DNA from: a virus
Virus record (IMG/VR): IMGVR_UViG_3300044737_000031
Coordinates: 5,060 to 69,059 of that record
Direction: 5' to 3' (one strand)
Length of the DNA stretch: 64,000 nt
The translations under genes were made by a program, and so were the position numbers. A model generated the notes under the pieces. That model ran no database searches and had not been told where the DNA came from. It saw only the letters and a list, made by a program, of their open reading frames with translations. Positions 2,948 to 39,027 of the stretch are shown here, one piece after another; the first letter of the stretch is position 1, and each line of letters begins with the position of its first letter.

Positions 2948-3151
2948 TTAATTCCAACGGCCGTGTTGCGCTTCTTCCCACATCCAGATCACCACGATGG
3001 CGATAAAAGTAAATAGCAACAGGATCGGCAATAGGCAATAAAACCAATTCCAGCCGATCACATGAAAGATGCGCAAGATCGGTAAGGCGATGCACGAAAC
3101 GGCCCACGCGATTTCAAACGCGATGACTAAATATTGCCAAGCGCTTTTCAT
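2948..3151 (-). CDS. small two-TM membrane protein
   Basis: 67 aa with two hydrophobic stretches, in the lysis region. Confidence 0.6.
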   Translation of the reverse strand: MKSAWQYLVIAFEIAWAVSCIALPILRIFHVIGWNWFYCLLPILLLFTFIAIVVIWMWEEAQHGRWN

Positions 3152-3552
3152 AGCTTCAAATGATCCAGCCGCATTTGATTCATAATGGTGAATCGCACCG
3201 CAACCTCGTACGTGACTCGCCAGTAATCGCCCTCTTTGGTTATCCCAATACGATCACCCGGCTTGATCCCACCGGCGATTTTATCGCCATACGCGGCCAA
3301 GAGGCCATCGTATCGCGCGAGCTTGTGCGAATCCCACAACCGGCCATGGGCATTGTACGCGCCGGCCACATCGCCACTGGTTTGCGTGTTACCCGAAAAG
3401 GATGGTACGCGCGATTCGACTTGGCCCGGCACCACCGTTTGATGGTAGGCGGCCATATCGTGCCGCTCTGGCCCGCGATGGCATGCCGGCAATGGCAACA
3501 CGGCCACGAATGCCGCGGTTAAAACGAGAAAGTGTAAAGTGCGCTTGATCAT
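3148..3552 (-). CDS. lipoprotein, candidate o-spanin
   Basis: MIKRTLHFLVLTAAFVAVLPLPAC: basic n-region, hydrophobic h-region, lipobox-like Cys; ATGA-coupled to the upstream gene. Confidence 0.55.
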   Translation of the reverse strand: MIKRTLHFLVLTAAFVAVLPLPACHRGPERHDMAAYHQTVVPGQVESRVPSFSGNTQTSGDVAGAYNAHGRLWDSHKLARYDGLLAAYGDKIAGGIKPGDRIGITKEGDYWRVTYEVAVRFTIMNQMRLDHLKL

Positions 3553-3788
3553 TCGGCGTCCATTTCTTCCAACCGCTTTTCGGCCGCATCTTTTTCGGCC
3601 TTGGTTGCCGTGGTGGATGCGAGCACACCATTGAGCCGGTTGATTTCGTTGGTGCGATTAACCGCCAATTGCGCGGTTGCGCCCTCTTTCATTTCCGGCG
3701 TGTTGGCCAAATCGCGCTTGGCATTCCAAGCTTTCAGCGCACCCGAAATAATATCGAGTGCGGGAGTGAGCCAACCAAATCCAATCAT
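3549..3788 (-). CDS. small protein, candidate i-spanin-like partner
   Basis: Amphipathic N-terminus and helical/coiled-coil C-terminus, directly upstream of the lipoprotein. Confidence 0.45.
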   Translation of the reverse strand: MIGFGWLTPALDIISGALKAWNAKRDLANTPEMKEGATAQLAVNRTNEINRLNGVLASTTATKAEKDAAEKRLEEMDAE

Positions 3789-3808: not shown

Positions 3809-4837
3809 TTACCGTCGCGCGTAGTATCGGCCGTTGCGAATGTACCCGAGTACCGCCGGCCGGTTTAATCGAAACTCGCCAGTTTTGATCGTAGCCGCGG
3901 CCGGGCTGGTAATCCGTTTCCACGCGTTGATGGAATCGTTGATGCCGGCCGCGATATCCACCGCCGCTTTCAATAAAAGCTTTGGATCACCGCTCAGTAA
4001 GTTGATACCTAACGAGTAAATGTGCGTCAGACTTGCGGACATTTCCTGATATTGCGGATCGGGCGGAAGCGCCGCCAGTAAGGCCGCTTGGAATTGGTCC
4101 GGCGTCATGCCTGATGCCGCGCTAACGATACCAACAATCTTGGACGTGGCCGCAATCGTGGCATCCCGTTGCGCCGGGGTGAGCGCGAAAGCAAACACAC
4201 CATCGGTGGCCAGTGCGGCGAGCGGCCGTATTTCCGGCTCACTCAACGTCACAACCTCGCGCACCTTGGCGGCCGCGGTGCCCTTGATTTGCTGGCTGCC
4301 GGTGGTTTCGCATGCCACACCGAGAAACGAAAAGCTCAACAGAAGCGCCGCCATCAGTGCGGTGACAACTGGCGCGCTGCCACTTCCACCGGCCGGTTTG
4401 GCCGGGCCAGTCACGGGCGGTTTGTTTTGCTGCACCGGTTCCGCGTTCACCAAAGATGCGGCGATATCCTCGGCCACGGTCGGATCAAAGATTTCGCCTT
4501 TCGGAAAATCCTTCATTTCGCCGTTGCCATAACGGATGGTGGCGGTATCGCCCATCAGCTTAACGAGCCGGCCGTTTTCGCCGATGCTCGGATGCGCAAT
4601 GGGTTGATCGAAAAGAAACTGGCCACTCGCCGCGGCCGCCTTGGCTTGATTGATCACATCGGACACTTGCGCCGTTGTCACGGCCGCTTGTGGTTGCCAC
4701 GGTTTCGAATTCAATGGCTTAACCGCTTTGACGGCCGCCGTTTTATCCTTGGGCGCTTCCGCGCCGGCAAATTCGGGATGATCGTTGATCGGCTCGGTAA
4801 CAATACCGGCCGCGTTTGGGGTTGGAGTATCAGCCAT
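3809..4837 (-). CDS. membrane-associated protein with internal lipobox-like segment
   Basis: About 160-aa soluble N-domain, then VVTALMAALLLSFSFLGVAC and a helical C-domain. Confidence 0.6.
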   Translation of the reverse strand: MADTPTPNAAGIVTEPINDHPEFAGAEAPKDKTAAVKAVKPLNSKPWQPQAAVTTAQVSDVINQAKAAAASGQFLFDQPIAHPSIGENGRLVKLMGDTATIRYGNGEMKDFPKGEIFDPTVAEDIAASLVNAEPVQQNKPPVTGPAKPAGGSGSAPVVTALMAALLLSFSFLGVACETTGSQQIKGTAAAKVREVVTLSEPEIRPLAALATDGVFAFALTPAQRDATIAATSKIVGIVSAASGMTPDQFQAALLAALPPDPQYQEMSASLTHIYSLGINLLSGDPKLLLKAAVDIAAGINDSINAWKRITSPAAATIKTGEFRLNRPAVLGYIRNGRYYARR

Positions 4838-5305: not shown

Positions 5306-5321
5306 AGCCCCAATTGAGGCT
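5306..5321. promoter_or_regulatory. palindrome A (variant AGCCCCAATTGAGGCT) in the spacer of a predicted holin promoter
   Basis: Minus strand reads TTGCAA-17 nt containing the palindrome-TAATTG-ctcgcac-ATG. Confidence 0.65.
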
Positions 5322-5331
5322 CGTTGCAACA

Positions 5332-6141
5332 CTAAAAACTTGACGCCAGCCGTTGCCAGTTTTCTGGCGCGATTTCACGGGCGCGTTTTTCCATCCGTTC
5401 TTTCATGCCCGCCTCGTGTTTTGAGTAGCCGAGTAAGTGTGTGTACCCGGCGCGGATGGCCTCGTGATCGTGTAACCCGGTGAGGATCGTGGCCGGACGG
5501 ATACCGTAAAAGCTCGTGAATGCCCACAAGCCGAATTGCTCAAGCATGATGGATGCGCGCGTGCCGCCCATTGATTGCCAGAGCGCAAGGTTGCGCTCGG
5601 CTATGTCCAAAGATTCTTGCGCATACTCAACGAGAAAGCGCCAATCCCAACCGCCAATAATTCCGGTGTTGTAAGCAACGGCCGCATGCCGGGCCAGTGC
5701 GGCCGCCCATTCAATGTTGGCGTAACGGATACCGGCGCGGGTTTCGTGGAATGGATAGGCCCACATATTTTCTTGTTCGCTGAAACTTTCCGGCGATTGG
5801 GCGAATACTTGCGCACGATCCACGCTTGGCCGTTCCCACAAAAACACATCACCATCCAGATGAATGAACGGGCCGCGCTGCATGGCGAATGTCGCGATTT
5901 TTCCGAGCGCCCACACGCCATTCAATCCGGCCGGGTTGAAATCTTCCAATCCGATTCCAACGCTCGTAAACGGCAACGCCAACCGATCAATCAAGTGGTA
6001 GCGGCCGGCCTCATCCGTTTCTAAGTGTAATGAATCGTAATGCCGGCGCGCCAGTCGCACCGAAAGAATCAGGCAAAGGGCGGTGAGATATCCGACATGG
6101 CCGCCGCTTGGCCGAGTCCAAAGCGACATTACAGCCCTCAC
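5332..6141 (-). CDS. DUF6734-like putative GT-A glycosyltransferase
   Basis: SLWTRP, LSVRLARRHY, WALGKI, PFIHLDGDVFLW (DxD), YNTGIIGG, LEQ and GYTHLLG motifs. Confidence 0.65.
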   Translation of the reverse strand: MRAVMSLWTRPSGGHVGYLTALCLILSVRLARRHYDSLHLETDEAGRYHLIDRLALPFTSVGIGLEDFNPAGLNGVWALGKIATFAMQRGPFIHLDGDVFLWERPSVDRAQVFAQSPESFSEQENMWAYPFHETRAGIRYANIEWAAALARHAAVAYNTGIIGGWDWRFLVEYAQESLDIAERNLALWQSMGGTRASIMLEQFGLWAFTSFYGIRPATILTGLHDHEAIRAGYTHLLGYSKHEAGMKERMEKRAREIAPENWQRLASSF

Positions 6142-6144
6142 GGT

Positions 6145-6870
6145 CTAACTAACCGTAATTTGAAAAATGTAATGCTTAAGCAAGACAAAGGAGCTATCAC
6201 GCACATCCACCGTAACTATGTAATTGCCGGCCAACGGTGTGCCGCCGATATGCATTCCACTGCCACCGCCCGGCATCGCACCGGTATTCACAACAACGCT
6301 TGGATCGGATGGTGTGAAGGTGGCTTGAAAAACTGCCGCGTTGTACGGGAAATCGAAATTCAATGCCTGTCCAACGGTACTTGTCAGATGCACCGCGCCA
6401 TCAATCCCGGTTGTAGGTGGCGGGGTGAAATCAGGATTCAACACCGGATATATAATCAGACCGGCGCTAAAGCCGGATGTTTGCCCGGCCGGGCCAAATA
6501 CAGCGTTCACATTTAGCACCACGCTTGAGCCAATGGCGCTTGCCGGTGGAATGCCGCTCAAGGTGAATCCTTGGCCGTTGCCGGCAATCGTGATTGTCAG
6601 CCATGGCGCGGTGTAACCGCTGGCCAACGCCACCGTTAAATTACTGACTGGCGCGCCAGAAAACCCAAATCCTAACGAGTTGGGATTTTCGGCACCCATC
6701 CGGCCGCTCGGCCCGTTGAATGAAACGAGTACGGGGAAGCTGGCCACCAACGAAGCGCCCACGCCTGATCCCGAATAATACGAGCCGCCGGTACCAATCG
6801 GCCGGGATAACGCGCGGCGAATGCCCTTGCCGCGACCCATCCAACCCAACCCGGCCGGCGAAAACGCCAT
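6145..6870 (-). CDS. virion-type protein with two putative Ig-like (He_PIG-type) domains
   Basis: APWLTI...TLSGIPP and MHIGGTP.AGNYIVTVDVRDS repeats; Gly-rich N-terminus. Confidence 0.55.
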   Translation of the reverse strand: MAFSPAGLGWMGRGKGIRRALSRPIGTGGSYYSGSGVGASLVASFPVLVSFNGPSGRMGAENPNSLGFGFSGAPVSNLTVALASGYTAPWLTITIAGNGQGFTLSGIPPASAIGSSVVLNVNAVFGPAGQTSGFSAGLIIYPVLNPDFTPPPTTGIDGAVHLTSTVGQALNFDFPYNAAVFQATFTPSDPSVVVNTGAMPGGGSGMHIGGTPLAGNYIVTVDVRDSSFVLLKHYIFQITVS

Positions 6871-7286
6871 CAGTTATCCTTGATCGTAAACGTTTGGCCG
6901 GTAGTCGCGCCGATGATCGAAATACTTTGCGTGGGAATAAACGAATCCCACGTGGCCGTGTCGCCAGCCACGATTCGCACCGATGGTTGCCCAACCACCG
7001 CGCTAATTCCGAAATTCACCCATTCATCGCCCGCGGAATTATTTTGCACCATCAGATAGTGCCGATCCACATTTGCGCTTGTTACAACCTGCGCAGTTCC
7101 GCCGGCCGTGATCGATCCCGAATGATCTACCAACGCGCCGCGGTTGTTGGCCAGCGAAAGCAATTTCTGCAACGTGTCTAATTGCGAATCGCCGTTGACC
7201 GGCTGCGTGGTGTCCCACTGCATCACGCCGGCAATGGCGGCCACCGCAATAAACAATCCAAGGAAATGTATGTGGCGTGCTTTCAT
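6870..7286 (-). CDS. beta-rich virion-type protein with N-terminal signal peptide
   Basis: MKARHIHFLGLFIAVAAIA|G; C-domain DHSGSITAGGTAQ...RHYLMVQNNSAGDEWVNFG resembles small phage jelly-roll proteins; TTGACG-17-GATTCT just upstream. Confidence 0.6.
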   Translation of the reverse strand: MKARHIHFLGLFIAVAAIAGVMQWDTTQPVNGDSQLDTLQKLLSLANNRGALVDHSGSITAGGTAQVVTSANVDRHYLMVQNNSAGDEWVNFGISAVVGQPSVRIVAGDTATWDSFIPTQSISIIGATTGQTFTIKDN

Positions 7287-7332
7287 CTTGGCCGAAAGAA
7301 TCCGGCCGCCGGGCCGGTGCGTCAATCCAATT

Positions 7333-7830
7333 CTAAGGGCGCTTGTCGGCCGGCCCCTTATAGCTCGGTGCCGGTAAATTGCGCTCTTTGATATCGTGAT
7401 TGGTTAAACCCAAATCCTGTTGCCACTCCATTTGGCGCAACCGGGCCAGATCACACGATGGCCCCAACGTGAATACGCCCCATTCCTTCACCATGGCGTT
7501 GTATGCCGCCTCGTTAGACGAAAGGCGCGTGTATGCGCTAAACGCCTGATCATACCCGGCCTCTTTGGCCACGAATCGTTTGGCAACCTCGGTGTTGTTA
7601 TCCACATGATTGAGTACGCCGAAAATATACCAAAGCGCCCCGATAATGAGCATCCCGCCGCCGATCACGCCGGCCACGAGCTTTTTAAAATTGTCCGCAA
7701 CGTTGGATGCCCGTTGCAACTGCATCGCAATCGTATGCGTAGGGCTTGGCGGCCCGGCCAGCATGTTGAGCACTTCCGAAAGTGTTTCGGGGTTTACGTG
7801 TGCGGGCAATTGAACATTGTGATGCGCCAT
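7333..7830 (-). CDS. single-pass membrane protein
   Basis: TM segment LVAGVIGGGMLIIGALWYIFGVL; immediately downstream of the receiver-domain gene. Confidence 0.65.
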   Translation of the reverse strand: MAHHNVQLPAHVNPETLSEVLNMLAGPPSPTHTIAMQLQRASNVADNFKKLVAGVIGGGMLIIGALWYIFGVLNHVDNNTEVAKRFVAKEAGYDQAFSAYTRLSSNEAAYNAMVKEWGVFTLGPSCDLARLRQMEWQQDLGLTNHDIKERNLPAPSYKGPADKRP

Positions 7831-7844
7831 TTCAAAATTCCCTC

Positions 7845-8303
7845 TTATCCCTTTTTATATCCATTCGCTAGTTGTGGCGCGAGCACTCGTTGCGCATGCA
7901 CGAAAATAATTTCATCCAACATGTACCGCACTGATATTTCGTCTTTGGCGTACATGTTGCGCGCGCCGCGTGCGCCGCAATTCGCCTTCAACCATGCGCC
8001 TTCGCTTGATCGATCCCCGGCCATGGCGGTGAGAATGAAAACCACCCGGCGAGTATTAAAGAATGGGATTTGCTCTATTGTTTCTTCCCACTTGGAATCT
8101 GGAAAATCCAAATCCAGTAAAACAATGTCCGGCTCATCCTCCAACACGGCCTTTTTGCCGAGCGCCAACGTTGCTTCCCACCGCACTTCACGCGTTGAGT
8201 TTGGCAAGTTTTGTTCAATCAATCGTATGACGCTTTGCACCCACGCGGCATTGTCATCAACGATTAAGATACGGAGAAATTTCCGGTGATCAGGCACGGC
8301 CAA
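7845..8303 (-). CDS. stand-alone response-regulator receiver (CheY-like) protein
   Basis: ILIVDD acidic pocket, PDIVLLDLD phospho-acceptor Asp, FILTA Thr and YAKD Lys all present; no output domain. Confidence 0.85.
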   Translation of the reverse strand: MAVPDHRKFLRILIVDDNAAWVQSVIRLIEQNLPNSTREVRWEATLALGKKAVLEDEPDIVLLDLDFPDSKWEETIEQIPFFNTRRVVFILTAMAGDRSSEGAWLKANCGARGARNMYAKDEISVRYMLDEIIFVHAQRVLAPQLANGYKKG

Positions 8304-8393
8304 GGGAAGTTTGGGGTTGGCAATCTAGGCGCGTGCGGCAACTAAGATGCTGGCGCAGTTATCGCCCGGCCGTGATCGACTGGCAAGCGCTGA

Positions 8394-9050
8394 TTAGGTC
8401 CAAGTGAATTTTACTTGGCCTTGCCCGCCGCCGCCGCTCTGGCCGCAACTGTCAGTGTTTCCACCGGCACCGCCGCCGCCCAAACTCGTACCATCACCGC
8501 AAGCCGTCCCGCCGGCACCACCGCCCGGCCCGGCACCCGCGCCACCGGAAACCGTGCTGTTGTTTGAACCATTGGTATTGGTATTATTGCCGCCGGTGGC
8601 CACGCCGCCCGTGCTCGGGCCTGATGTGGCCGCCGCCCCGCCGTTACCACCGCCCGCTGATAGATTGCTTGGCGCGGCAATCAGGCCGCTCAATGTAACC
8701 GTGGAAGTGGTGCCATTGGTGCCCGCGGCCGAGACTGTTCTAGTGGATAGGGCCGCCGCCGATACATAGGCCAAGCTTGCGCCATAATCGCCGGCCGAAA
8801 TAGTCACGATGGTTTTACAGTAACCGCCGCCGGCACCACCGCGGCCAGTACTTGCGCCCGTGATCAAGCCGCCTTGCCCGCCGCCGCCCCATGCTTCAAT
8901 TGTCAACGAGCTTGCGCCGGTCGGCACGGTTTCATTTCCCGATGTGCCGTTGTAAGTGTGCGTGACTGGCGAGAAAGCGCCGCCCGTGCCCATGTTGTTG
9001 CTAACGAGCACTTGGATTACGCCAGCCGCGAGAATTGAAAATAATTTCAC
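8394..9050 (-). CDS. glycine-rich adhesin/fibre-tip protein
   Basis: GTG start coupled to the fibre stop; TVPTGASSLTIEAWGGGGQGG...GGAGGGY...GGQGQVKFTW glycine-rich domain pattern. Confidence 0.75.
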   Translation of the reverse strand: MKLFSILAAGVIQVLVSNNMGTGGAFSPVTHTYNGTSGNETVPTGASSLTIEAWGGGGQGGLITGASTGRGGAGGGYCKTIVTISAGDYGASLAYVSAAALSTRTVSAAGTNGTTSTVTLSGLIAAPSNLSAGGGNGGAAATSGPSTGGVATGGNNTNTNGSNNSTVSGGAGAGPGGGAGGTACGDGTSLGGGGAGGNTDSCGQSGGGGQGQVKFTWT

Positions 9051-10795
9051 GAGAATTTTCCTGTAATCAGCCACTCGGTTGATTTGGTTTTGATGATTGT
9101 CACCACACTATCGGCCGTGATTGTCCGGCTACCGGTGCCGGCGGTTCCGTCGCCCCGGCGCAACGTATCGCTCGTGATTGCCAGAGTGATCACGCCGGCG
9201 CTGTTGTTGTTGATGATCGTGATCGTGGTGCCTATCGGAAACGCCACCGATGCATTGGCCGGTATCGTGTACGTGCGGGCCGTTACTTCATCGTGAAACA
9301 GGCTCTTGCCGGCATCGGTCAACACGAATGTGTATGCCGTATTTTGTGCGTTTTGTGGCGCGCCGCGGAAACCGATTGAGGCCACGTCTGTTGGGCCGGT
9401 GGCCGCGGAAACGATTACCTCGCCAGTGAGTGTGCCGCCGCCCAATGTCATCAATGTGCCGGACGTGGGCAATGTCACGCTCGTTGTACCGCTCAGGGTG
9501 AATGTGACGGCAAATGATCCGCTCGTGGTGAGGTTGCCGCCAAGCGTGATGGTTTTACCGCTGTTACTCACCCCGGTGCCGCCGCTCGCGCCGGCCAATG
9601 GTGTGGTGCTCAGGGTGAGGCCGTTAAAACTCGGTGAGCTTCCCGTTGTTAGGCCGGAAACATCCGCTTGCGCAATCGCAAGCAACGTTTTGACTTGTGC
9701 GCCAGTCAGATCAAGCGCATTGGCCGTGCCGCCGGTGTTGTTGCCCTTGATTGTGAGCGTGGCCATTTGCGCCAGCGCGGAATTGGATACCGAGTTGGTG
9801 GCCAGATTCGCGCCCAACAGATTTCCGGTTGAGTTGGTGAGCGCAATTACACCGCTCCCGGCCGTGATCGTGCCTAACGTGATGAAATTCCCGCCCGTAT
9901 CCCATGACGCGATTTGCAGGCCGGTTGATTCGTCCGCGTTTTTGATGATGCGCACCACTCCGCTGAATGCATCAATGGCAAAATTGAGGTTGGTTCCGTA
10001 GGCGAATTTTACGCCCGGTGAATCACTACTGCCGTTGTTGAAAATAATACCCGCCTTGCCGCTGGCGGCCGTGGCGTACGCCCACCCGCCGGCACCAAAC
10101 AACACTTGCCCGTTGCCTTTCGGGTTAATCGAAAAATCAATATCGGAACCCGAACCGTTCACCGTGAGTTGCGGAATGGTGCTTGATCCCGCCAACGTAA
10201 AATAGTTGGTTTGATCCCGGCCGATGATGGCCGATCCCAACACATCAAGCGGCACGGTAGGCGATGCGGTGCCAATGCCGAGCCGGTTATTGGCCTCATC
10301 GTACGCGCTCGTGCCGAAAAGTATCTTGCCCTTGGTTGCGTGCGCGGTGCTCATCAGTGTGAGATTGCCGCCCGTTAAGGTGTCACCCTTGAGTGTTTGC
10401 CCGCCGCTCGCGCCGGCCGCCACGATCCCGCCGGCCGCAACAAGTTGTGCGCTTGTGAGTGAGCCGCTTAATTCGGAAAAGTTGACGGTACCCGATCCCA
10501 CCAAACCGAGGTTGCCCAATGCCGTGATTAAACTGCCGGTTGGCTTAACGATTGGCGTGGAATTATAGAAACCGAGTTTTTCAGTTGTTGAGCCGCCAAC
10601 CTTCGTGCCGTTGGTGGTGCCAAGGTGCCAGATCACCGCGGCCGAGGAATCCGCGGCCGAGGTTAAGCCGCCAAAGTTCGCAATGGCTTTGCTGTTGGCG
10701 TCAACATTGGTATCCCATCGCTCGTTTGAGCTTGGCACCGCGGCCAGCGCTAAGATGGGCGCGAGGATTAACGAGAAAATCAAAGATCGTTTCAT
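9047..10795 (-). CDS. tail-fibre-like protein with N-terminal Sec signal peptide
   Basis: Fibre motifs GTKVGGSTTEKLGFY, LGIGTASPTVPLDV, GGTGVSNSGKTITLGGNLTTSG and C-terminal YTFVLTDAGK...FPIGTTITI; starts MKRSLIFSLILAPILALA|A. Confidence 0.8.
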   Translation of the reverse strand: MKRSLIFSLILAPILALAAVPSSNERWDTNVDANSKAIANFGGLTSAADSSAAVIWHLGTTNGTKVGGSTTEKLGFYNSTPIVKPTGSLITALGNLGLVGSGTVNFSELSGSLTSAQLVAAGGIVAAGASGGQTLKGDTLTGGNLTLMSTAHATKGKILFGTSAYDEANNRLGIGTASPTVPLDVLGSAIIGRDQTNYFTLAGSSTIPQLTVNGSGSDIDFSINPKGNGQVLFGAGGWAYATAASGKAGIIFNNGSSDSPGVKFAYGTNLNFAIDAFSGVVRIIKNADESTGLQIASWDTGGNFITLGTITAGSGVIALTNSTGNLLGANLATNSVSNSALAQMATLTIKGNNTGGTANALDLTGAQVKTLLAIAQADVSGLTTGSSPSFNGLTLSTTPLAGASGGTGVSNSGKTITLGGNLTTSGSFAVTFTLSGTTSVTLPTSGTLMTLGGGTLTGEVIVSAATGPTDVASIGFRGAPQNAQNTAYTFVLTDAGKSLFHDEVTARTYTIPANASVAFPIGTTITIINNNSAGVITLAITSDTLRRGDGTAGTGSRTITADSVVTIIKTKSTEWLITGKFS

Positions 10796-11424
10796 GTAAT
10801 GTTTGGCACGTACGAGTTTTGCAACGTTTGCCCGGCCACCGCGCCGGCACTTAAATTCACATAATACCCGGCGCTCGTGACGGTATCGATTGAAATTGGA
10901 TCAATATCATCCTCGCCGCTGGCCGTCTTTTTAAACACCGGCCGCCCAACGAATGTGGGCGCAACGGTCAAGCCGGTGATCGGCATGTAAATTCGAATCG
11001 CTCCGATATCCGCGCCGGCAATCACCTTGGAATGGGTTGTACCGACAAGCCGGCCAATGTATCCATCCATCACCGCAACCGCGCGCATCAAAAGCAGGAT
11101 CGTTTCCACGTCGCCATAATTGACTTTTGGCGCGCCGGTATTGGGAAAGAAATCCTTCGAAACCGCGTAATAAACCGTGCCGCTCGGTTTGGAAAACGGG
11201 ACGCTTAAAAATATTTCCCACTTGCCGCTACCGCTCACACCGGGCGCGGCCGTGTGATCTACGAAATACAACACGCCGTTGTTGTAGGCGGCAGAATTGA
11301 GCGCGGCCGGCACCGAAAAGATATCGTTAGGATTGACCGTACTCCAATCCACGATGGCATCACTGGCGATTACGCGTTGGCTCGCGTTAGCAACAATTGC
11401 TTGGGCGGTTCGGATTTGTGCCAT
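10792..11424 (-). CDS. tail fibre adaptor/anchor-like protein
   Basis: Position after J; N-terminus resembles fibre attachment domains; no signal peptide. Confidence 0.5.
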   Translation of the reverse strand: MAQIRTAQAIVANASQRVIASDAIVDWSTVNPNDIFSVPAALNSAAYNNGVLYFVDHTAAPGVSGSGKWEIFLSVPFSKPSGTVYYAVSKDFFPNTGAPKVNYGDVETILLLMRAVAVMDGYIGRLVGTTHSKVIAGADIGAIRIYMPITGLTVAPTFVGRPVFKKTASGEDDIDPISIDTVTSAGYYVNLSAGAVAGQTLQNSYVPNIT

Positions 11425-11463
11425 GGGTGGTGGTTTCTATTTAATCGATCCGCAAAAAGTATC

Positions 11464-11487
11464 GAGCCTCAATTGAGGCTTTTTCCT
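11464..11487. promoter_or_regulatory. palindrome A, GAGCCTCAATTGAGGCTTTTTCCT
   Basis: Perfect 16-bp palindrome at 11465-11480 between J and the adaptor gene; identical 24-mer at 26734 and, inverted, at 38638. Confidence 0.75.
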
Positions 11488-14400
11488 CACGGGTTGCCGC
11501 GGCCGCCCACTTCCACATCGTACGTTCCGACTGTTAGCCCCGAATCGGTCATGCCGGCCTTATAGCCAATCAGTTTGATCGTCTTATTGCCAAACACGCT
11601 GATGTTTGCGCCCGGAATGAATGTGGTGCCGGTTGGTGTCGCGCCCGTGTGGGTTGGCGTGGTGCCATCGGTTGTGGCGAAAATAGTTGAGCCGGATGTT
11701 GCGCAACTGACGGGCACATTCTTTGCGCCCGTGGTGGTGGTGTAGTAACCGGGCGCGAGGCCGAGCGCCGGGTTGGCCACCACCGTTCCGCCGGCCGTTG
11801 TAAACGCCACGCTCAACATGGTGCTCACCCAACCCAATTTCACCGCAAAAGCCTTGAGCGTGATGTTGCCCGAAATTGCCACCACTCCGGTAATGGCGTT
11901 GATCTTGACCGTGGTACCCGTCGGATTTAATCCGGTATCCCACGCCGGCGTTGTGCCATCCAGCGTGTAAAAAAGAATGCTGTACGGAGTGGGCGCGGTG
12001 AGATTGATGTTGCCTTGGTACGCGCCGGCTTGATCAGTCACCGGCGCGGCAATCGTTCCGTTGATAGCGCCCACATCAACCGTGTGGCCGGTTTGCGGCC
12101 CGGCCTTGGTCTTTTGGTTTCCCTGATTATCCACGCCCCATGGCGCGTTGGCGAATGTGGCCGCGCCAATCCAAATCGCTCCAAACGTGGTTGAGTCTAA
12201 CGGATCGGACAAACCAACATAAAACGATGCGCCGGCCGTGCCGCCAATCTGCATTGAGCCATCAGGATTCAACACCATGACATTTGGCGCGGTGCCAAGC
12301 GTTACTTTTCCGGTGGCATCATCCACCACGAATTTGCCGGCCACGTTAATTGCGCCGCCGAAAATTCCCGCGTACGCCTCAAGATGGCCGAGGCCGGCCG
12401 CATCCACGTAAATGCGCCAACCCGAAACGCCGGCCACATAATTGGCGCTCTTGATCACGCCGGGGATGCCGCCCAAATCCTGACCAATGATAATGGTTTG
12501 GCCAAGGATCGTGCCGCCCACGATCTTATCGGCCACCAACGTTTGAATCTTGGCGCTTGTCACGGCCAAGTTGGCGATGTAAGCCGAGCCGATCAGCGCG
12601 TTGGCCATCGCGTTCCACGCCAAATCGTGAATGCCGGCATCGTTGGCGTTGGTGGCGATGATAAATTGTCCATCGGTCAAGCTCGGCAACGCATCGCTCG
12701 CCGAATAAACCGCGCTCACCCCATCCCAATAAACGTATTGCAAGTTGGTGCTACCGGCCGCGATGGCGTACAGCGCGCCCTGATAAACGAGCGTGTGTGC
12801 ACTCCATGAGATATACCCGGCCGCACTAACGAGGCCGTTTTGATTGTCGAACCATGCCGCGCCTTGCAAGGCCACGGTGTTGGTAAACATCTTGGTGATA
12901 TCAACCGCGAAACTGGAAATATCAGTGTTGCCGATCGTACCGGTGGTGGCCGTGGCCATTGCGCTGAATGGGCTGAGATTGCCGAAACTATCCTCGGCCT
13001 TGAGCCAATAATATTTGGTGGCCGGCGGTGGATCAGTCACCACGCGGGTAAAGGTGGTGTTATTCTGGCCGAGCACCGCCACTTCCACGGCCGTGGATGA
13101 ATCGTTGGTGGCGCTTTCAAACACGTGAATGGCGGCCAGATCAACCACGGACGGATTGCGCCATGATCCAAACACTTGCTTGAATGATGCGGATACCGCG
13201 AAAGCATCCGGTGCCGGCGGTGCCGGGTTGGACACATCCAAAAACGAATCACTGTGATTGTTGAAGATATCCCACGCGGCCACTTGAAAGCGGAAGTTGG
13301 CTTGTGCCACGCCGTTGTTTGCTTCCGCGTTTTTTTCGTAAGTGAGCGTGAAACTTGGCGTTTTGGTTTTCTCAGTCCAGACCGTTAGGCCATTGACGAT
13401 CATGCGCACTTCAAAGTATGCAAAGTGCGGATCATCCACGCCGGCGGCCGCGCCCGTCAAATCGTCCTGTATCTCGGTTTGATTGGCCGGCGAATTGATG
13501 CGCCACGCAAACTTGGCATCGCGTTGCTCAAAGATCGTATCGTGCGCAAGGCCGATCAGCTCAAGGCCGTTGACGACAAAGAGCGGCAACGGGTTGGCCA
13601 GTGTCACGGTAAATTCCGCATCCACCGGCGCGGAAAATCCGCCTAACGTGTTGACGGCCAAAATCTGAAACTCGTAATGGCCCACGCCACCCACCGGAAT
13701 AACAATGCTCGGCTCGCGCGTCTTGCCGGCGTCAATCCAGTTGCCATCCTCAAAGCGCAATGAAACGTGATATTCCTTCACGAATGCGTACCGCGTGCCA
13801 TCCACCGGGTTGACCGGCGGCACCCACGTGATCACAAGATTATTGACCAGCCGGCCGGTGATATCGGTGGATGCGACTTGTTGCACCGTCACATCGCCGA
13901 TGGGCGGGCAGTTGCCGGGATCGGGCCGCGGATCGGTATCCGGCGGCTCAAGCGTTAAATTGGTTTCCACCGCATCGTATATCGCCGGGTTGTAAGTAAT
14001 CCCCGTGATTTCGGTTTTCATCAGGTCAACCATTTTCACGTTGTTGACTCTGAATAGTTCAGGCTTTAAATCGCTCGCGCTCAAAATCCACACCGATTGA
14101 TCAACCGGCGGGAAATCCAATTCAGTCACAAAGTTGATCGTGTCCGTGGTGGATGGCGTGTTGCCAACCGCAACCTCAACATTGCTTCCATCGGTGAGCG
14201 TCAAAAAGATTGTGTACGTTTTGCCGGCCTCAATCACCACCGGCGTATCCAATACCACGCCCGGCGTATCGCCCACTTTCACGCGGCCGCTGTACGGAGT
14301 GGTGCCAGTGCGAAACGGCACACTCACCGGGATCACATCGCCCGGCCGCAATGACGCGCCTTGCAAGCCGGTGCTGTATGTCAATGCCTCGGTGCGCAAT

Positions 14401-15893
14401 TGCTCTTGCATCAGCATCATGCGGCCGCGCCGGTGCGCTTGCCCGCGGCTCGTTATGCCAATGCCGGTAACGTGCAACTCGTTTTCGCCATGATCCAAGA
14501 GCGCTTGTTGATCTTCCACATACTCGGTTTTTGGCCGGCCGAAATCCGCGGGATCATTCCATTCAATCAACGCCACCGTGTGCCGCTCTTTGCGGCTCGT
14601 GGTGCTAAAATTAAAATCGCCGTTTTCAACATTGGCCGGGCCGTAGGCATCCCGATACTCGGACGGATCAACAAGCCTATCTTGCACCGGGCAAATCTGG
14701 CCGCCGATAAACGCCGGTACCGCGTTCATTGAGCCAAAGAAATCGTTTAATACCGCGATGGCATCGGCCCGGCCGGTGATCACCGTGTTGCACGTGTAGC
14801 GCGGTTCCATGCCGCCGAATCCATCCGGCACCATCGTATCGCATACTTGCGCGGCCCGGTAAAAATCCCACTTGCTCAACTTGGCGGGATCAACGTAAAG
14901 GCCGAGGCCGTTGGTTCGATCCGTCAACAAATCCCAACACACCCACGAGTTGTTTTGCGTCCATGCCTGTTTAAACGTGCCATCCCATACGCCGGCGGTA
15001 GTGCCCGGCCCGGTGGTGGCGTACGCGCGCGTATCAGGATCATAATTTGCGGGCACGCTGATGATGCGGCCGTAAACCTCAAAGGATCGGCTCGGCAACG
15101 ATGAAAATTGCGTGGAATCAAACCGCGTTGCGCAATACGAAACGAGCGGATGGGAAAGCTTCTTATCAATTACCTCGGTGTACGAATCAATGAAAGTATC
15201 GTTGCGCAATTTCAGCGTGGTTGAATCCTTCGTGACACGAGTAATGCGGATTTGCCACGGCCCCGGCTTGCTGCTATCGGCCAGATCGATGCGGTACGAT
15301 CGTGTGAAACCACCGGTGGTTTTCCCTTTGATGGTGTCATTCATCACTTCCACCCAACCGCCACCGTTAATGTTTAACTCAAATTTTACTTGAATCTTGC
15401 TGCCAGAAATGTTGCCGCTTTTCTTATCCGTCTTGAGTAACGCCGGCGTGCGAATATCGAAACGCAATGCATCCAGATTCGGGTTGGTGAATTCGCGCAC
15501 GTAGGGATTGGAAAAAGTGAGCTTCAATCCTTCCGCGGCCGTTGCTTCCTCGGATTCGAAACCAACAACCGGCAACTGATCTTGTGTGCCGGTTAAAAAG
15601 TGCACTTCCAAATCGGAAGGAATTACCGCACTCGGATTGCCCGGATGGGCCGGGTCTTGCATCGTCGCAAAGTTATTGCTCCCATCCAGATTTTGAATGC
15701 GCGTAAATTCCAGCGCAATGGATTGCATGTTGGGATGGACAAGGCCGCGGATCGGCCCGGCGCTGATAATATCTTTGATGTACGATATCTGCGTACTTTG
15801 CAGTGAATCCGGTGCCTCTTTCGGTGAGCTTCCGCTTCCGCTCTGGCCGCCTGATCCCGCCACGGCCGGCCGTGGTGCCATTAACGTTTTCAC
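11487..15893 (-). CDS. tail tip / host-specificity protein (lambda J-like)
   Basis: EAPDSLQS, ISAGPIRGL, IKGKTTGGF.RSYRI, PWQIRITRVT.DS, WDGTFKQAWTQN, PRYTCN, GITSRGQAHRRG; Fn3-like segments; two C-terminal (Y/A)TxDGTTP domains. Confidence 0.92.
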   Translation of the reverse strand: MKTLMAPRPAVAGSGGQSGSGSSPKEAPDSLQSTQISYIKDIISAGPIRGLVHPNMQSIALEFTRIQNLDGSNNFATMQDPAHPGNPSAVIPSDLEVHFLTGTQDQLPVVGFESEEATAAEGLKLTFSNPYVREFTNPNLDALRFDIRTPALLKTDKKSGNISGSKIQVKFELNINGGGWVEVMNDTIKGKTTGGFTRSYRIDLADSSKPGPWQIRITRVTKDSTTLKLRNDTFIDSYTEVIDKKLSHPLVSYCATRFDSTQFSSLPSRSFEVYGRIISVPANYDPDTRAYATTGPGTTAGVWDGTFKQAWTQNNSWVCWDLLTDRTNGLGLYVDPAKLSKWDFYRAAQVCDTMVPDGFGGMEPRYTCNTVITGRADAIAVLNDFFGSMNAVPAFIGGQICPVQDRLVDPSEYRDAYGPANVENGDFNFSTTSRKERHTVALIEWNDPADFGRPKTEYVEDQQALLDHGENELHVTGIGITSRGQAHRRGRMMLMQEQLRTEALTYSTGLQGASLRPGDVIPVSVPFRTGTTPYSGRVKVGDTPGVVLDTPVVIEAGKTYTIFLTLTDGSNVEVAVGNTPSTTDTINFVTELDFPPVDQSVWILSASDLKPELFRVNNVKMVDLMKTEITGITYNPAIYDAVETNLTLEPPDTDPRPDPGNCPPIGDVTVQQVASTDITGRLVNNLVITWVPPVNPVDGTRYAFVKEYHVSLRFEDGNWIDAGKTREPSIVIPVGGVGHYEFQILAVNTLGGFSAPVDAEFTVTLANPLPLFVVNGLELIGLAHDTIFEQRDAKFAWRINSPANQTEIQDDLTGAAAGVDDPHFAYFEVRMIVNGLTVWTEKTKTPSFTLTYEKNAEANNGVAQANFRFQVAAWDIFNNHSDSFLDVSNPAPPAPDAFAVSASFKQVFGSWRNPSVVDLAAIHVFESATNDSSTAVEVAVLGQNNTTFTRVVTDPPPATKYYWLKAEDSFGNLSPFSAMATATTGTIGNTDISSFAVDITKMFTNTVALQGAAWFDNQNGLVSAAGYISWSAHTLVYQGALYAIAAGSTNLQYVYWDGVSAVYSASDALPSLTDGQFIIATNANDAGIHDLAWNAMANALIGSAYIANLAVTSAKIQTLVADKIVGGTILGQTIIIGQDLGGIPGVIKSANYVAGVSGWRIYVDAAGLGHLEAYAGIFGGAINVAGKFVVDDATGKVTLGTAPNVMVLNPDGSMQIGGTAGASFYVGLSDPLDSTTFGAIWIGAATFANAPWGVDNQGNQKTKAGPQTGHTVDVGAINGTIAAPVTDQAGAYQGNINLTAPTPYSILFYTLDGTTPAWDTGLNPTGTTVKINAITGVVAISGNITLKAFAVKLGWVSTMLSVAFTTAGGTVVANPALGLAPGYYTTTTGAKNVPVSCATSGSTIFATTDGTTPTHTGATPTGTTFIPGANISVFGNKTIKLIGYKAGMTDSGLTVGTYDVEVGGRGNP

Positions 15894-16570
15894 AATTCGT
15901 CAATGTCCCGGCTCGTGTCGCCTAACGTGCCCGGCGAGCCGGCGTTGTTGCCATCGGACGGATCATCATCCGGTTCAATAAATCCGATTGGGTTGCTTCC
16001 CGATTTTCTTTCCTCGGATTTCACGCTTGATGATCCCACCACCGAGCCACACCACGTTTTGCCGTACACGAGCGGAATGGCCGTGCCTTGCAAAGCGATG
16101 TTGACCGGCCCGCCGAATTGGTACGATGGCTTGTTTTTAACGTTGGTTTGGTTATCCACCGAGGGCGATGGCGCAATGAGTTGAGAGATACCGCCAAGCG
16201 CCAAGCTCAACCCCAACGTGGTGAGCACACCGGTATGCAGAAAGATCACATCCGCGGCAATCAACACCACGCCAATGATCAACTCACCCCATCCCTTGCC
16301 GCTGCTTGAACCGCGCGCCACTGGCCGAAACTCAAGCGATTGGCCGTGGTGCGTCATGTCCAACTGCAATTGCCGGATGCATTCCTTGCGGCCGCCGGCA
16401 CCGATGTGAAACCGGTAATTGTTCGCGTGAAGATCAAGGATATCTCTTTTGATCCCCGGTTTCATTCGATCAATTGCGTGGATCACTTCCCGCGGTGTGT
16501 TTACATCCAACCGCCATTTGCGGCCGTATTTCCGGCCGAGCGCACCGCGCAATGTGATATCGGTAAGCAT
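15890..16570 (-). CDS. tail assembly protein (lambda I-like)
   Basis: ITLRGALGRKYG, TPREVIHAI, SYQFGGPVN...QGTAIPLVYG; position in the L-K-I-J order. Confidence 0.88.
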   Translation of the reverse strand: MLTDITLRGALGRKYGRKWRLDVNTPREVIHAIDRMKPGIKRDILDLHANNYRFHIGAGGRKECIRQLQLDMTHHGQSLEFRPVARGSSSGKGWGELIIGVVLIAADVIFLHTGVLTTLGLSLALGGISQLIAPSPSVDNQTNVKNKPSYQFGGPVNIALQGTAIPLVYGKTWCGSVVGSSSVKSEERKSGSNPIGFIEPDDDPSDGNNAGSPGTLGDTSRDIDEL

Positions 16571-25746: not shown

Positions 25747-26679
25747 TTACAGCGTGGCCTTGGTGACTTTCATTTGGCACGCCTCGGTGGGATCGAGCAA
25801 CGCGCGAAATTGGATATTCTCCATTCGATCCGCGTTCATGCCGGAAAGGTCGGGCATGTCATCGGGCAACTTAATGCGCGGCAACAGCACCGTGTACGAT
25901 TTGCCGCCGGTAACGCCATCCGTCAGAACGAAGGAAAGCGAGAGCGCGGTATTGGCCACAAAGAGTGACCAAATGGACGCATCAGCGAAGTACGCTTGAA
26001 TCGTCCCGGTAATATCCAGATCACCGCGGCCGTATTTCCGGCTAACGAGTGAGGCCACGTCATCGCGTGCCCGCAAGTTATTCTTGATCGAAAGTTTGAT
26101 ATCCTTCACCCCGATGCCGATGGCGGCACCGTTGACCAATACCGATGCGATGTTGATGCCGGCGGCCATCACTGGCGTGACCGTGGCGGCAACCGTCGTG
26201 GTGGCGGCCGTGGCGCTCGCGATGCGTCCAATCGTTCCCATGAACGAAACGTCACCCGTCACAATCTGCTTGGACGAAATGTTCAAATTCAGATCGTTGA
26301 CGGAACAACCGCGGAAGTACAGGAATTGCGCGATATCCAACGCCTGATCCTCAAATTGAAACGAGCGCAACCCGGCCACGCCGGATTTCAAAACACCAAC
26401 CGTGAAAGCGCCGCCCAGCGAGGATTCCAGAAACTTATCGAAAGTATCGCTTGAGAATTCGAACGAGAAACCGCCCGTAACCTCTTGCCCAACGAGTAAC
26501 AAATCAGAGCGTGCACGATCCGCACGAAGCTCGTTGGAAACGATGGTGTTGTTTTTGTGCGCAATAGAATGCTTCGTAATGCGCAGGATTTGCAGTGTTG
26601 GAGTTCCGGGGATTGCCTCGTTGAAAGCTGCTTCCTCGCGAAAAGCCAACTGACTCCTTGTTGTATCGGCATCAGCCAT
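25747..26679 (-). CDS. major tail tube protein
   Basis: SQLAFREEAAF, IVSNELRADR, GGFSFEFS, YFRGCSVN, ITGTIQAYF; strong SD (GAGGAG). Confidence 0.88.
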   Translation of the reverse strand: MADADTTRSQLAFREEAAFNEAIPGTPTLQILRITKHSIAHKNNTIVSNELRADRARSDLLLVGQEVTGGFSFEFSSDTFDKFLESSLGGAFTVGVLKSGVAGLRSFQFEDQALDIAQFLYFRGCSVNDLNLNISSKQIVTGDVSFMGTIGRIASATAATTTVAATVTPVMAAGINIASVLVNGAAIGIGVKDIKLSIKNNLRARDDVASLVSRKYGRGDLDITGTIQAYFADASIWSLFVANTALSLSFVLTDGVTGGKSYTVLLPRIKLPDDMPDLSGMNADRMENIQFRALLDPTEACQMKVTKATL

Positions 26680-26733: not shown

Positions 26734-26757
26734 GAGCCTCAATTGAGGCTTTTTCCT
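26734..26757. promoter_or_regulatory. palindrome A downstream of a predicted tail-tube promoter
   Basis: Identical 24-mer; minus-strand TTGCGT-17-TACTAT lies just upstream (about 26767-26795). Confidence 0.75.
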
Positions 26758-29626: not shown

Positions 29627-30640
29627 TTAAACGCTGACGTTGTGACGCACCCGCACGATGCGCACATTCTTGGCCTCGTACACGCGCTGCCAGTTGTTGC
29701 CATCCGTCATTTCGGTGTTGCTCGGCGAGCTTCCCGCCATGTTGGCACCAAGCCACTTGATTCCCCGCGGATGCAGGATCATGCGGCGGCGGTTGTACAT
29801 CAAATCCTGACCGGCACCGGCCGCGCGCGCATACTCAAGCCGCCACGTTCCGAAACCGCCCACGATTTTCTTATCGTTGGTGCTAACGCCGAAAGCGATT
29901 GCACCTTGGCCAAACAGATAAGTGGTGAAAACGAGCAACGCGTTGATCGTTTCGACCGGCAACGAGTCATCCACCACCACATTGAGTTGCTGAAATTGCT
30001 TGAGCGTCAGCTTGCCTTCCGAGTCCGGCCGAAACGTGATCAAATCCCGTTTCAACAGATCGGTTTCCGTAAGCGAGTGCATCGCAATGCCGGTGAGCTT
30101 TCCGCTCGCATCGCCCATCACTTGCTTGGCGTCCAAAAACGTTTTGCCGTTCAGCGTGTTTTTGTCCGTAACCGTTGCGCCAGTCGCTAAGTAAATATCC
30201 TTGGTGTTGCTGGCCGCCATCAACGCACTGGCGAAAACGCCGGCGAGCATGGCAATGACGCCGTGGTTGAGCCGGCGCGCCCAATAATCGCCGACAAGAT
30301 CACCGATTTTCCCCATCGGATCATCGCCGGAAATGTACTGCGCCAGATCGTTGGTGCTCCAACCTTTCCCTCGGTTGAGGATGATTGCCTTATCATCCTG
30401 AGCCACAATTTTATCGGTGCTCAGTGAACCAGTGTCACTGATAACCTCATCCTCGCCGGACAAGTCCTGCCAGAAAGGCATGTCAATCACCGTGCCCGGC
30501 CCGTTGGCCAAGGTGGTGTACGTCGGATCGGCATCCACAATTCCAGATTGGATAAATGCCGATGTTTCCGCGGTGCGCTCTACCACGTAGGGCAGAAACA
30601 CCGAGGGAATGATGATGTCACTAATGAGCGTTTCCGCCAT
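29627..30640 (-). CDS. major capsid protein (SPP1 gp13-like)
   Basis: ISDIIIPSVF, SAFIQSGIV, MPFWQDLSG, RGKGWS..DLA, DPMGKI, AMHS, VVVDDSLP, ILHPRGIKW, NWQRVYEAKNV. Confidence 0.92.
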   Translation of the reverse strand: MAETLISDIIIPSVFLPYVVERTAETSAFIQSGIVDADPTYTTLANGPGTVIDMPFWQDLSGEDEVISDTGSLSTDKIVAQDDKAIILNRGKGWSTNDLAQYISGDDPMGKIGDLVGDYWARRLNHGVIAMLAGVFASALMAASNTKDIYLATGATVTDKNTLNGKTFLDAKQVMGDASGKLTGIAMHSLTETDLLKRDLITFRPDSEGKLTLKQFQQLNVVVDDSLPVETINALLVFTTYLFGQGAIAFGVSTNDKKIVGGFGTWRLEYARAAGAGQDLMYNRRRMILHPRGIKWLGANMAGSSPSNTEMTDGNNWQRVYEAKNVRIVRVRHNVSV

Positions 30641-33889: not shown

Positions 33890-33939
33890 AGCCCCAATTG
33901 AGGCTTATTGCACCATGCACAAAGTTTTGTGCGGTGTCA
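33890..33939 (-). promoter_or_regulatory. predicted promoter with palindrome A variant at the start site
   Basis: TTGACA-17-CATGGT, then AGCCTCAATTGGGGCT (33890-33905). Confidence 0.65.
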
Positions 33940-38636: not shown

Positions 38637-38637
38637 A

Positions 38638-38661
38638 AGGAAAAAGCCTCAATTGAGGCTC
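38638..38661. promoter_or_regulatory. palindrome A, inverted copy abutting the portal start codon
   Basis: AGGAAAAAGCCTCAATTGAGGCTC; ends 1 nt from the ATG. Confidence 0.75.
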
Positions 38662-38697
38662 ATTGATCGATTGTTGTGCCAAAGCCATTGGCGTGCG

Positions 38698-38934
38698 TCA
38701 AGCAACGGTGGGCACGTCCTCTTGGTGTCCCACGATCTTTTCGCATCCGGGCGTTGGACATTTCACGGCCGCTTCACGCTTGTGGCCCATTTGCAGGATG
38801 TTGGATTGCACGCGCGAAACATCGGCGCGCTCTAATCGGAATTGAACGCGACACGTTGGGCATTCCAATTGTTTTCCGATCCACCACAATTTCGGATCGG
38901 CCGATGGCAGTTCACCGGGCCGGATGATTTCCAT
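38698..38934 (-). CDS. zinc-ribbon hypothetical protein
   Basis: CPTC...CPTPGC; CATAAT 8 nt before the ATG. Confidence 0.6.
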   Translation of the reverse strand: MEIIRPGELPSADPKLWWIGKQLECPTCRVQFRLERADVSRVQSNILQMGHKREAAVKCPTPGCEKIVGHQEDVPTVA

Positions 38935-39027
38935 GTGCGGAGATTATGCGCGTTGCCTCTCGCTTGCAAAGAAAAAGGCCGCCGGGAATGGCGGCCCTTT
39001 CCGAGAATGAAAACAAACGAATCAGCG

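Follow-up and report, generated by a model that had tools for sequence, protein, structure and literature searches.

The 64,000-nucleotide stretch analysed here (the window) comprises bases 5060-69059 of the 69,059-base IMG/VR virus record IMGVR_UViG_3300044737_000031, which is rated 72% complete. It belongs to a phage with a lambda-like siphovirus gene set. The particle of such a phage is built in the cytoplasm, and textbook assembly of tailed phages is wholly cytoplasmic; part of the host-recognition gear of the window phage is probably made outside that compartment. Three of its proteins, a tail fibre of 582 amino acids (aa) and two jelly-roll proteins of 138 and 170 aa, start with what are, to judge from their N-termini, classical leaders of the Sec/signal-peptidase-I type (Table 1). 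The fibre itself appears to be split, its anchor residing on a leaderless 210-aa protein (the stub) and its distal part lying behind a leader in the next gene. One far-reaching interpretation, which is given a probability of about 0.4, is assembly in two compartments: a socketed particle would form in the cytoplasm, whereas the fibre, a Gly-rich adhesin and the jelly-roll proteins would pass through Sec, reach their fold in the periplasm and attach to the particle only at lysis.

Signal peptides on three proteins of the window

The original prediction had pointed to signal peptides on the three proteins and to a weaker hydrophobic N-terminus on the Gly-rich protein encoded behind the fibre. 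All four quoted N-termini are present in the sequence as stated, and the weaker one is indeed found on the Gly-rich protein. The 138-aa open reading frame (ORF) starts MKARHIHFLGLFIAVAAIA, followed after the predicted cut by GVMQW, and the 170-aa ORF starts MKRIIAGLILAIVATAAPCAFA, followed by QRSLE. The n-regions are positively charged (MKR-, MKARH- and MKR- in the 582-, 138- and 170-aa proteins, respectively), and the hydrophobic cores span by eye about 14, 12 and 14 residues. The predicted cuts fall between ALA and A in the fibre, AIA and G in the 138-aa protein, and AFA and Q in the 170-aa protein, with small residues at -3 and -1 in each case. None of the three leaders contains a lipobox; the Cys in the APCAFA of the 170-aa leader has Pro at -1 and hence does not form one. 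The +1 residue is Q in the 170-aa leader and a residue other than Q in the fibre and 138-aa leaders.

Leaders were called across the window with a loose, untrained rule of our own, which asks for a net positive n-region, an uncharged hydrophobic core and small residues at -3/-1. Of the 105 ORFs it was run on, which had been called greedily and of which 63 are on the coding strand, 12 were flagged; a strong AxA-type site is present in five of the 12. The fibre and the two jelly-roll proteins account for three of these five, and for them the rule picked longer cores (16, 17 and 17 residues; mean Kyte-Doolittle values 2.77, 2.36 and 2.38 for the 582-, 138- and 170-aa proteins); the other two are a 133-aa coiled-coil protein (39644-40045) and a doubtful 58-aa ORF. 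The rule flagged neither J, tube, capsid and portal nor the 210-aa protein, which agrees with the earlier statement that capsid, tube, J and the adaptor (10792-11424) have no such peptide.

Homologues were counted with a stricter rule, for which homologues of the leaderless 210-aa protein served as control; one of 66 was flagged, apparently falsely. By this count a leader is present in nine of nine homologues of the 170-aa protein, at 54 of 80 viral loci of the 138-aa family and in eight of 119 listed fibre homologues. That the relatives of the 170- and 138-aa proteins keep their leaders suggests selection for them and argues for real export. Because the leaders have the right form and are conserved, export of the three proteins is regarded as well supported and very likely.

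A probable split of the fibre between a leaderless stub and a leader-bearing distal part

By its sequence the 582-aa protein is a real fibre type, since it consists largely of tail-fibre modules and has its knob in common with a true T7-type fibre. The knob matches the tip of a fibre from YIMV22061, a cultured Limnohabitans phage (52% identity over 104 residues, E 3e-21); that fibre is 748 aa long, ends in the matching stretch and carries an N-terminal Phage_T7_tail domain (E 1.8e-37) and no leader. None of the 438 homologues of the window fibre is full-length; they carry Peptidase_S74, Collar, Mtd_N, collagen and pectate-lyase domains, and a search by sequence returned no solved relative. Residues 1-60 are nearly uncovered by the 119 listed matches (mean coverage 0, 0 and 1 in successive 20-residue bins). 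The fibre N-terminus is thus without an anchor domain of its own; a domain of that type sits on the upstream 210-aa protein instead.

The stub has no Pfam or PHROG family, but an exhaustive search among representatives yielded 66 relatives of 80-1170 aa. Its N-terminal domain stands at the N-terminus of most of them, the best-matching stretch running from query residues 1-3 to about 110-160, with the conserved pattern MAQIRTG..VTNGS...DWS....PG.S.SG.WE..L...Y....Y.I..DF.P. One relative headed by this domain, a protein of 599 aa, has collagen repeats. The last ~80 residues of the stub occur among the relatives either alone or at other C-termini. Because the N-terminal domain heads proteins of widely varying length, its pattern suggests a tail-attachment domain that bears exchangeable distal parts, and the adaptor function originally proposed for 10792-11424 gains support. 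The fibre gene follows directly, its ATG overlapping the stub stop codon as ATGA, and the GTG of the Gly-rich ORF at 9050 overlaps the fibre stop in turn as GTGA. Stub, fibre and Gly-rich protein are therefore coupled in one late translation unit. The Gly-rich ORF reads MKLFSILAAGVIQVLV at its start; its product matches phrog_4205 (E 1e-7) and, weakly, phrog_863 'tail fiber assembly' (E 2.4e-4), and has no Pfam family, GP38 included, at E up to 0.1 (8394-9074) and no solved relative by sequence.

Seven related stub loci are readable (L083-L089), two of which (L083 and L086) are cut. In L085 a gene that looks J-like when its C-terminus is read by eye is followed by a small gene, a 237-aa stub and, overlapping it as ATGA, the gene of a giant protein; the latter has at least 876 aa and begins with MKKITLIIALLLGAASA. 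In L084 the stub is overlapped by a gene for a 1571-aa protein that starts MATSSLIRITLIACLSVSSFFAEHSLA, with QG behind the predicted cut, and ends in Peptidase_S74, a hallmark of tail fibres. A leaderless stub followed by a coupled, leader-bearing giant fibre is thus found in the window and on two other viral contigs. The pairs of L084 and L085 have the stub C-terminus and the fibre N-terminus in common, and both ends differ in the window pair; such covariation would be expected if the two ends touch, although with only two types it is weak evidence. Taken together, these arrangements suggest a split in which the fibre anchor is on the leaderless stub and the distal fibre behind the leader in the next gene.

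The two probably exported jelly-roll proteins

The predicted model of the 138-aa protein is a small jelly-roll with a predicted local distance difference test (pLDDT) score of 82, exceeding 90 in the domain. Conservation is concentrated in the 88-residue C-terminal domain (SGSITAGGTAQ ... SIIGATTGQ, alignment A1); in the 151-aa form of the ORF (6870-7325), residues 64-147 match phrog_22789 (E 1.7e-8). The alternative TTG start at 7325 has a G+C-rich hairpin over it (7302-7317), and the start of the 138-aa form is directly behind this hairpin. The best fold matches of the model are uncharacterised phage proteins (E 1.5e-8), followed in the PDB by the lumenal domain of gamma-glutamyl carboxylase, Ena pilins, PirA and cupins (E 1e-4 to 1e-2).

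In IMG/VR, 159 stretches confirmed by tblastn encode a relative of this jelly-roll on viral contigs. Among the 80 loci kept for counting, a leader stands directly before the domain at 54, none is present at 25 and one locus is cut; the 54 represent 41 distinct sequences, and three of the calls (L007, L008 and L011) look false. Within the leader-bearing clade an RR-type leader, MVI[GS]RRSLLLAGA..., heads the product of the neighbouring downstream gene. Two of the 80 loci have no next ORF, and at the other 78 the leader status of jelly-roll and next gene agrees in 72 (47 with both, 25 with neither, five and one discordant). At L035 (5929-8269) the pair lies between terminase and portal, and the RR-leader protein carries Laminin_G_3. 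A conserved, putatively exported pair, a Sec-leader jelly-roll followed by an RR-leader protein, is found at L035 and at about 47 related IMG/VR loci; in L035 the pair is followed by a leaderless 412-aa protein that is beta-helix-like by eye and has no family match. The jelly-roll domain also ends long repeat-rich proteins of viral contigs, one of 639 aa in L011 among them.

The 170-aa protein has nine homologues (46-65% identity) and no Pfam or PHROG match, Phage_cement_2 included. Its predicted model is likewise a jelly-roll, of pLDDT 69. Its best PDB matches in Foldseek are 7dou_4, the trimeric cement protein of Helicobacter pylori phage KHP40 (E 8.8e-4), at template modelling (TM) scores of 0.40/0.51, and Ena3A (E 8e-4 to 2e-3). 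The model also aligns with an Atlas cluster with Phage_cement_2 (TM 0.57). The protein thus weakly resembles phage cement proteins in its modelled fold, with TM scores near the limit of meaning. The earlier labels of fibre, jelly-roll-like and decoration-like proteins are reasonable in this light, the last only weakly so. Assignment to virion appendages is backed by the fibre modules, the T7-type knob and the two jelly-roll folds, with a weak likeness to cement proteins on the part of the 170-aa protein. A common origin of the leader-bearing domains was considered and rejected, hhalign of A1 giving a probability of 0.2 against the 170-aa protein and of 0.3 against the C-terminal 137 residues of the fibre.

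Proposed two-compartment assembly and its alternatives

In the proposed mechanism, the side fibre of the window siphovirus would be divided between two genes whose products are bound for different compartments. The leaderless stub, with its anchor domain, would become part of the tail tip while that structure forms in the cytoplasm. The rest of the fibre, its shaft modules and its receptor-binding knob, is encoded by the coupled next gene and would be exported behind the Sec signal peptide and cleaved, and the fibre would fold in the periplasm, probably with the coupled Gly-rich protein. Stub and fibre would meet only once holin lesions and lysis merge the compartments, so that assembly would end with the fibre snapping onto otherwise complete particles. 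The 138- and 170-aa jelly-rolls would be exported too, and the scheme is least secure about where these two go, whether to the fibre, the particle or the envelope. Export, cleavage, docking and the time of docking are all deduced from sequence. The earlier proposal that exported parts either dock or act as secreted proteins fares accordingly: the conserved leaders argue for the export on which it depends, but docking in the periplasm before lysis finds no support. That the exported fibre docks onto the stub at lysis is put at slightly less than an even chance. It is favoured because the stub would otherwise be without a distal part, because stub, fibre and Gly-rich protein form one coupled unit, because the pair recurs (on three phages only) and because the knob comes from a working virion fibre.

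Several observations weigh against this scheme. Among the listed homologues of the fibre modules, 111 of 119 are leaderless, and one of the eight with a leader is on a 626-kb contig, cellular in size. Similarly, 35 of 38 protein-database homologues of the jelly-roll have no leader (three do), most being bare domains of 90-100 aa, and the leader-bearing jelly-roll loci are largely one G+C-rich clade and hence not 54 independent events. In L087 the stub is followed by a leaderless 785-aa protein, and in L088 and L089 by short or lipoprotein-like genes. Neither the fibre nor the 138-aa protein contains Cys, and neither shows an excess of glycosylation sequons (three D-S/T-hydrophobic sequons in the fibre against 2.4 expected), so that no obvious gain from periplasmic folding is visible; a rationale based on such folding was dropped for these reasons. 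An in-frame GTG is found directly behind the predicted cut at fibre codon 20 (10736-10738), as are a GTG and an ATG just behind that of the 138-aa protein at codons 21 and 22 (7221-7226), so leaderless isoforms of both proteins could be made from internal starts. The 138- and 170-aa genes lie behind terminator-like hairpins, as independent accessory genes would. Finally, the long C-terminal part of J has carbohydrate-binding-type domains, which may make side fibres dispensable, and the window phage has no cultured relative.

The exported proteins might instead never join the particle, but mask receptors, exclude superinfecting phages or act as adhesins, either on the envelope of the infected cell or, set free at lysis, on receptors of cells and debris. 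This is unlikely, if far from negligible. It would account for a fibre without an anchor domain of its own. It would also fit a known habit of phages, which place genes for leader-bearing envelope proteins next to those for receptor binding (lambda Lom, T5 Llp and Cor). Leader-bearing proteins without a known function in Porphyromonas gingivalis phages are likewise proposed to be outer-membrane modifiers (PMC10367356). The hairpins preceding the two small genes fit as well, as do the jelly-roll and RR-leader lectin-like protein that the IMG/VR clade keeps between terminase and portal, not an obvious position for a fibre, and the leaders present on eight of the 119 listed fibre homologues (one of them on the 626-kb contig). 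However, free proteins leave unexplained why an overlapping anchor stub precedes a leader-bearing fibre in the window, L084 and L085. In the 64-kb window a decoy would have nothing to imitate, because the fibre is not encoded there a second time without a leader, and receptors of the outer surface are out of reach of a periplasmic protein before lysis. The three leaders, unlike those of Llp and Cor, are without a lipobox, and there is no sign of lysogeny: no integrase was found among the 40 window proteins scanned against Pfam, on a contig that is 72% complete. Given this absence and a gene set nearly all on one strand, expression in the lytic phase fits better than lysogenic conversion.

Two further explanations are weaker still. 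The virion forms could be cytoplasmic products of the in-frame starts behind the leaders, with the leader isoforms minor, or the leaders could go unrecognised in the true host; this would be surprising. The internal codons do lie exactly after the predicted cuts of the fibre and 138-aa protein, and the protein-database homologues of the jelly-roll are mostly leaderless at about 90-100 aa. On the other hand, no motif of the GGAG/GAGG type is visible before these codons, read by eye and without a scan there, the fibre ATG is coupled to the upstream stop, and the 170-aa family shows no internal start pattern while its leader is present in nine of nine homologues. In the IMG/VR clade the domain follows the leader directly, and Sec accepts leaders of so canonical a form in bacteria generally. 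It is comparably improbable that the three are unrelated accessory genes with separate extracytoplasmic roles, their likeness to virion proteins reflecting the reuse of fibre modules and jelly-rolls in secreted bacterial proteins. Profile comparison does find no relation of the jelly-roll family to the 170-aa protein or the fibre C-terminus, and in fold the proteins resemble others only weakly and unspecifically (Ena pilins, PirA, cupins and plant-virus coats, E 1e-4 to 1e-2). Yet the knob is strongly homologous to that of a true T7-type fibre, the jelly-roll is also the C-terminal domain of long repeat-rich proteins such as that in L011, and its 159 confirmed relatives are on viral contigs.

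Relation to known systems and implications

One close comparison is the Autographiviridae phage YIMV22061 (PQ492660.1), which resembles the window in its knob and in the Gly-rich gene behind the fibre. In that phage a single protein without a leader makes up the fibre and includes the Phage_T7_tail anchor. In the window the anchor belongs to a different family and sits on the leaderless stub, apart from the distal protein with its signal peptide. The YIMV22061 Gly-rich protein matches Pfam GP38 (E 1.8e-5) and has no BLAST similarity to that of the window. A Gly-rich partner gene also follows the fibre gene in T2/T6-like phages, where the gp38-type adhesin (Pfam GP38) binds the fibre tip. The window protein differs from gp38 in its hydrophobic N-terminus and in having no match to Pfam GP38, and gp37 and gp38 are not known to be exported. 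A virion-bound adaptor that carries a separately encoded distal fibre has counterparts in G7C gp66/gp63.1 and the CBA120 tailspikes; none of their pieces is known to leave the cytoplasm, while the distal piece of the window has a Sec leader. Lambda Lom, T5 Llp and Cor of phi80 and N15 are encoded beside tail-tip or fibre genes and exported to the envelope like the products of the window leader genes. They are, however, small outer-membrane proteins or lipoproteins without fibre modules, whereas the window leaders have no lipobox and the largest of the three proteins, of 582 aa, is a fibre whose gene is coupled to that of the anchor stub. The KHP40 cement protein 7dou, Phage_cement_2 and the Bacillus Ena pilins are weakly similar to the jelly-roll models of the 170- and 138-aa proteins, without a sequence family match, and cement proteins are not known to have leaders.

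Tail fibres are not normally known to carry signal peptides, and a literature search found no description of signal peptides on the tail fibres of tailed phages. In PMC12923769 signal peptides appear only in the title of a reference. Another study states that phage target proteins of diversity-generating elements are without signal peptides, an absence used there to support phage origin (PMC6199706). Genes with signal-peptidase-I leaders and no assigned function are reported for P. gingivalis phages and read as modifiers of the host outer membrane; their products are not described as fibres, unlike the 582-aa protein (PMC10367356). Leader-like N-termini are also seen in phi3:1, a cultured phage of Cellulophaga, where according to its GenBank entry gp8 starts MKNYLSILFLLSSFLVLS and gp9 starts MMKTILLLAFSLCSFFAVA, both followed by Q at the predicted cut. 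The entries of phi3:1 and phi38:2 (KC821630 and KC821629) name gp8 a 'structural protein' and gp9 a 'pectate lyase', for phi38:2 as judged from the labels alone, and the gp8 label in phi3:1 derives from similarity to phiSM gp8. This combination of a leader with a structural label speaks for docking, although the two cultured phages are Bacteroidota myoviruses with no sequence relation to the window. To such cases the window would add the split architecture and a setting outside the Bacteroidota, to judge from a knob in common with a phage of Betaproteobacteria, from GGAG/GAGG-type motifs before some of the genes, and from fibre and 138-aa leaders without Q at +1 (the 170-aa leader has it).

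If exported fibres do end up on particles, the final assembly step would hinge on the Sec pathway of the host and on lysis, and the route would extend to siphoviruses of the lambda-like kind, here one whose host uses Shine-Dalgarno sites and whose fibre tip recurs in a Betaproteobacteria phage. Annotation pipelines should then no longer discard leader-bearing genes as non-structural, and engineering of host range through fibre swaps would have to respect the compartment. The gene signature would be an anchor stub without a leader whose translation is coupled to that of a distal fibre with one, and such a gene pair offers a simple means of finding these phages. Should the exported fibre instead be a free receptor mask, a receptor-binding protein would have given rise to a decoy of a novel type.

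Organization of the window and other features

Table 1. Features of the window discussed in the text, with positions on the 64,000-nucleotide stretch.
Feature	Position	Strand	Description
582-aa fibre protein	9047-10795	-	Leader, unique stretch to ~residue 60, mosaic of tail-fibre modules, C-terminal knob
Fibre signal peptide (residues 1-18)	10742-10795	-	MKRSLIFSLILAPILALA; predicted cut before AVPSS
Fibre C-terminal knob (residues 476-579)	9059-9370	-	52% identity to YIMV22061 fibre tip
210-aa leaderless stub	10792-11424	-	Residues 1-~125 putative fibre-anchor domain; ~130-207 small C-terminal domain
138-aa protein	6870-7286	-	Leader 1-19, linker with helix, 88-aa jelly-roll domain 50-138
170-aa protein	39028-39540	-	Leader 1-22, jelly-roll domain, two Cys in mature part
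Terminator-like hairpin + U7	39575-39630	-	-26.6 kcal/mol, z -3.5; just upstream of 170-aa gene
Gly-rich protein, 218 aa	8394-9050	-	Hydrophobic N-terminus (weaker leader); possible gp38-like adhesin/assembly partner
152-aa receiver-like domain protein	7845-8303	-	Response_reg E 7.1e-5, 23.4 bits (cut-off 30.2); phrog_731
165-aa protein	7333-7830	-	One central hydrophobic segment, KLVAGVIGGGMLIIGALWYIFGVL; no family; from translation
241-aa protein	6145-6870	-	Start overlaps jelly-roll gene stop by one base; no leader/family
269-aa DUF6734 protein	5332-6141	-	PF20508 E 1.5e-42; final gene of hairpin-bounded module
Palindrome	11465-11480	.	AGCCTCAATTGAGGCT; between J and stub
Palindrome, second copy	5306-5321	.	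1 mismatch; downstream of DUF6734 gene
Further palindrome copies	26735-26750, 33890-33905, 38645-38660, 53425-53440
J protein, 1468 aa	11487-15893		FNIII-A_GpJ, Phage-tail_3, C-terminal chitobiase-type domains
Tube	25747-26679
Capsid	29627-30640		Gp13-like
Portal	37011-38636		DUF4055
Large terminase	48105-49580

Nearly all real genes of the window are on the minus strand. The siphovirus set further includes a Mu-F-like protein, a tape measure protein of 2093 aa and M-, L- and K-like tail proteins. The C-terminus of J matches CHB_HEX_C_1 (E 4.5e-10) and Fn3_assoc (E 4.6e-8), and on the strength of these domains the central tip of the phage may itself bind glycan. The G+C content is even (54-60%), motifs of the GGAG/GAGG type precede 14 of 48 genes, and the window encodes no tRNA. 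As to moron-type genes with a promoter and terminator of their own, hairpins lie upstream of the two small leader genes, but no convincing promoters were found. Close relatives of the phage were sought in several ways: megablast of 6000-16000 against phages gave no near relative, single-protein scans of viral contigs, started from the stub, from its orthologue P0170 and from the jelly-roll protein, gave no close one, and a scan of genome contigs with the window terminase gave none. Alignment A7 likewise returned nothing, and alignment A5 returned one partial locus in genome contigs, from a Rhodospirillales metagenome-assembled genome.

The fibre genes belong to a module (5322-11464) bounded by two copies of the palindrome, at 5306-5321 and 11465-11480. 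This 16-base palindrome is present in six copies in the window with at most two mismatches, where 0.01 would be expected by chance. At least three of them are intergenic, each a short way upstream of a gene (stub, tube or portal). The palindrome may mark the borders of modules and serve the phage as its own type of terminator, processing site or regulator site. Within the module, the 152-aa protein is a stand-alone receiver-like protein of the CheY type, with a score under the Pfam cut-off. The DUF6734 protein has an HLDGDVF motif that is, by eye, reminiscent of DxD glycosyltransferases. A twin-arginine (Tat) leader was considered for the 241-aa protein and rejected; its RR pair has no adjoining hydrophobic core, and the protein was not flagged.

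The gap between terminase and portal (38637-48104, ~9.5 kb) is unusual for a packaging module and contains, besides the 170-aa leader gene, a gene for a DNA methyltransferase-like protein (phrog_3816) and many ORFs without a family. Just upstream of the terminator that precedes the 170-aa gene lies the gene for the 133-aa coiled-coil protein, whose N-terminal hydrophobic segment and long coiled coil give it a spanin-like outline. No recognisable endolysin was found among the window ORFs scanned. A possible lysis cluster lies at 2948-3788, with ORFs of 79, 134 and 67 aa, the last with two hydrophobic segments; the 134-aa ORF (3148-3552) has a lipoprotein-like leader, MIKRTLHFLVLTAAFVAVLPLPAC, with ...LPLPAC. 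The nearby 342-aa ORF (3809-4837) has no family match and contains an internal hydrophobic stretch ending in the lipobox-like FLGVAC, so that it could conceal an embedded lipoprotein gene.

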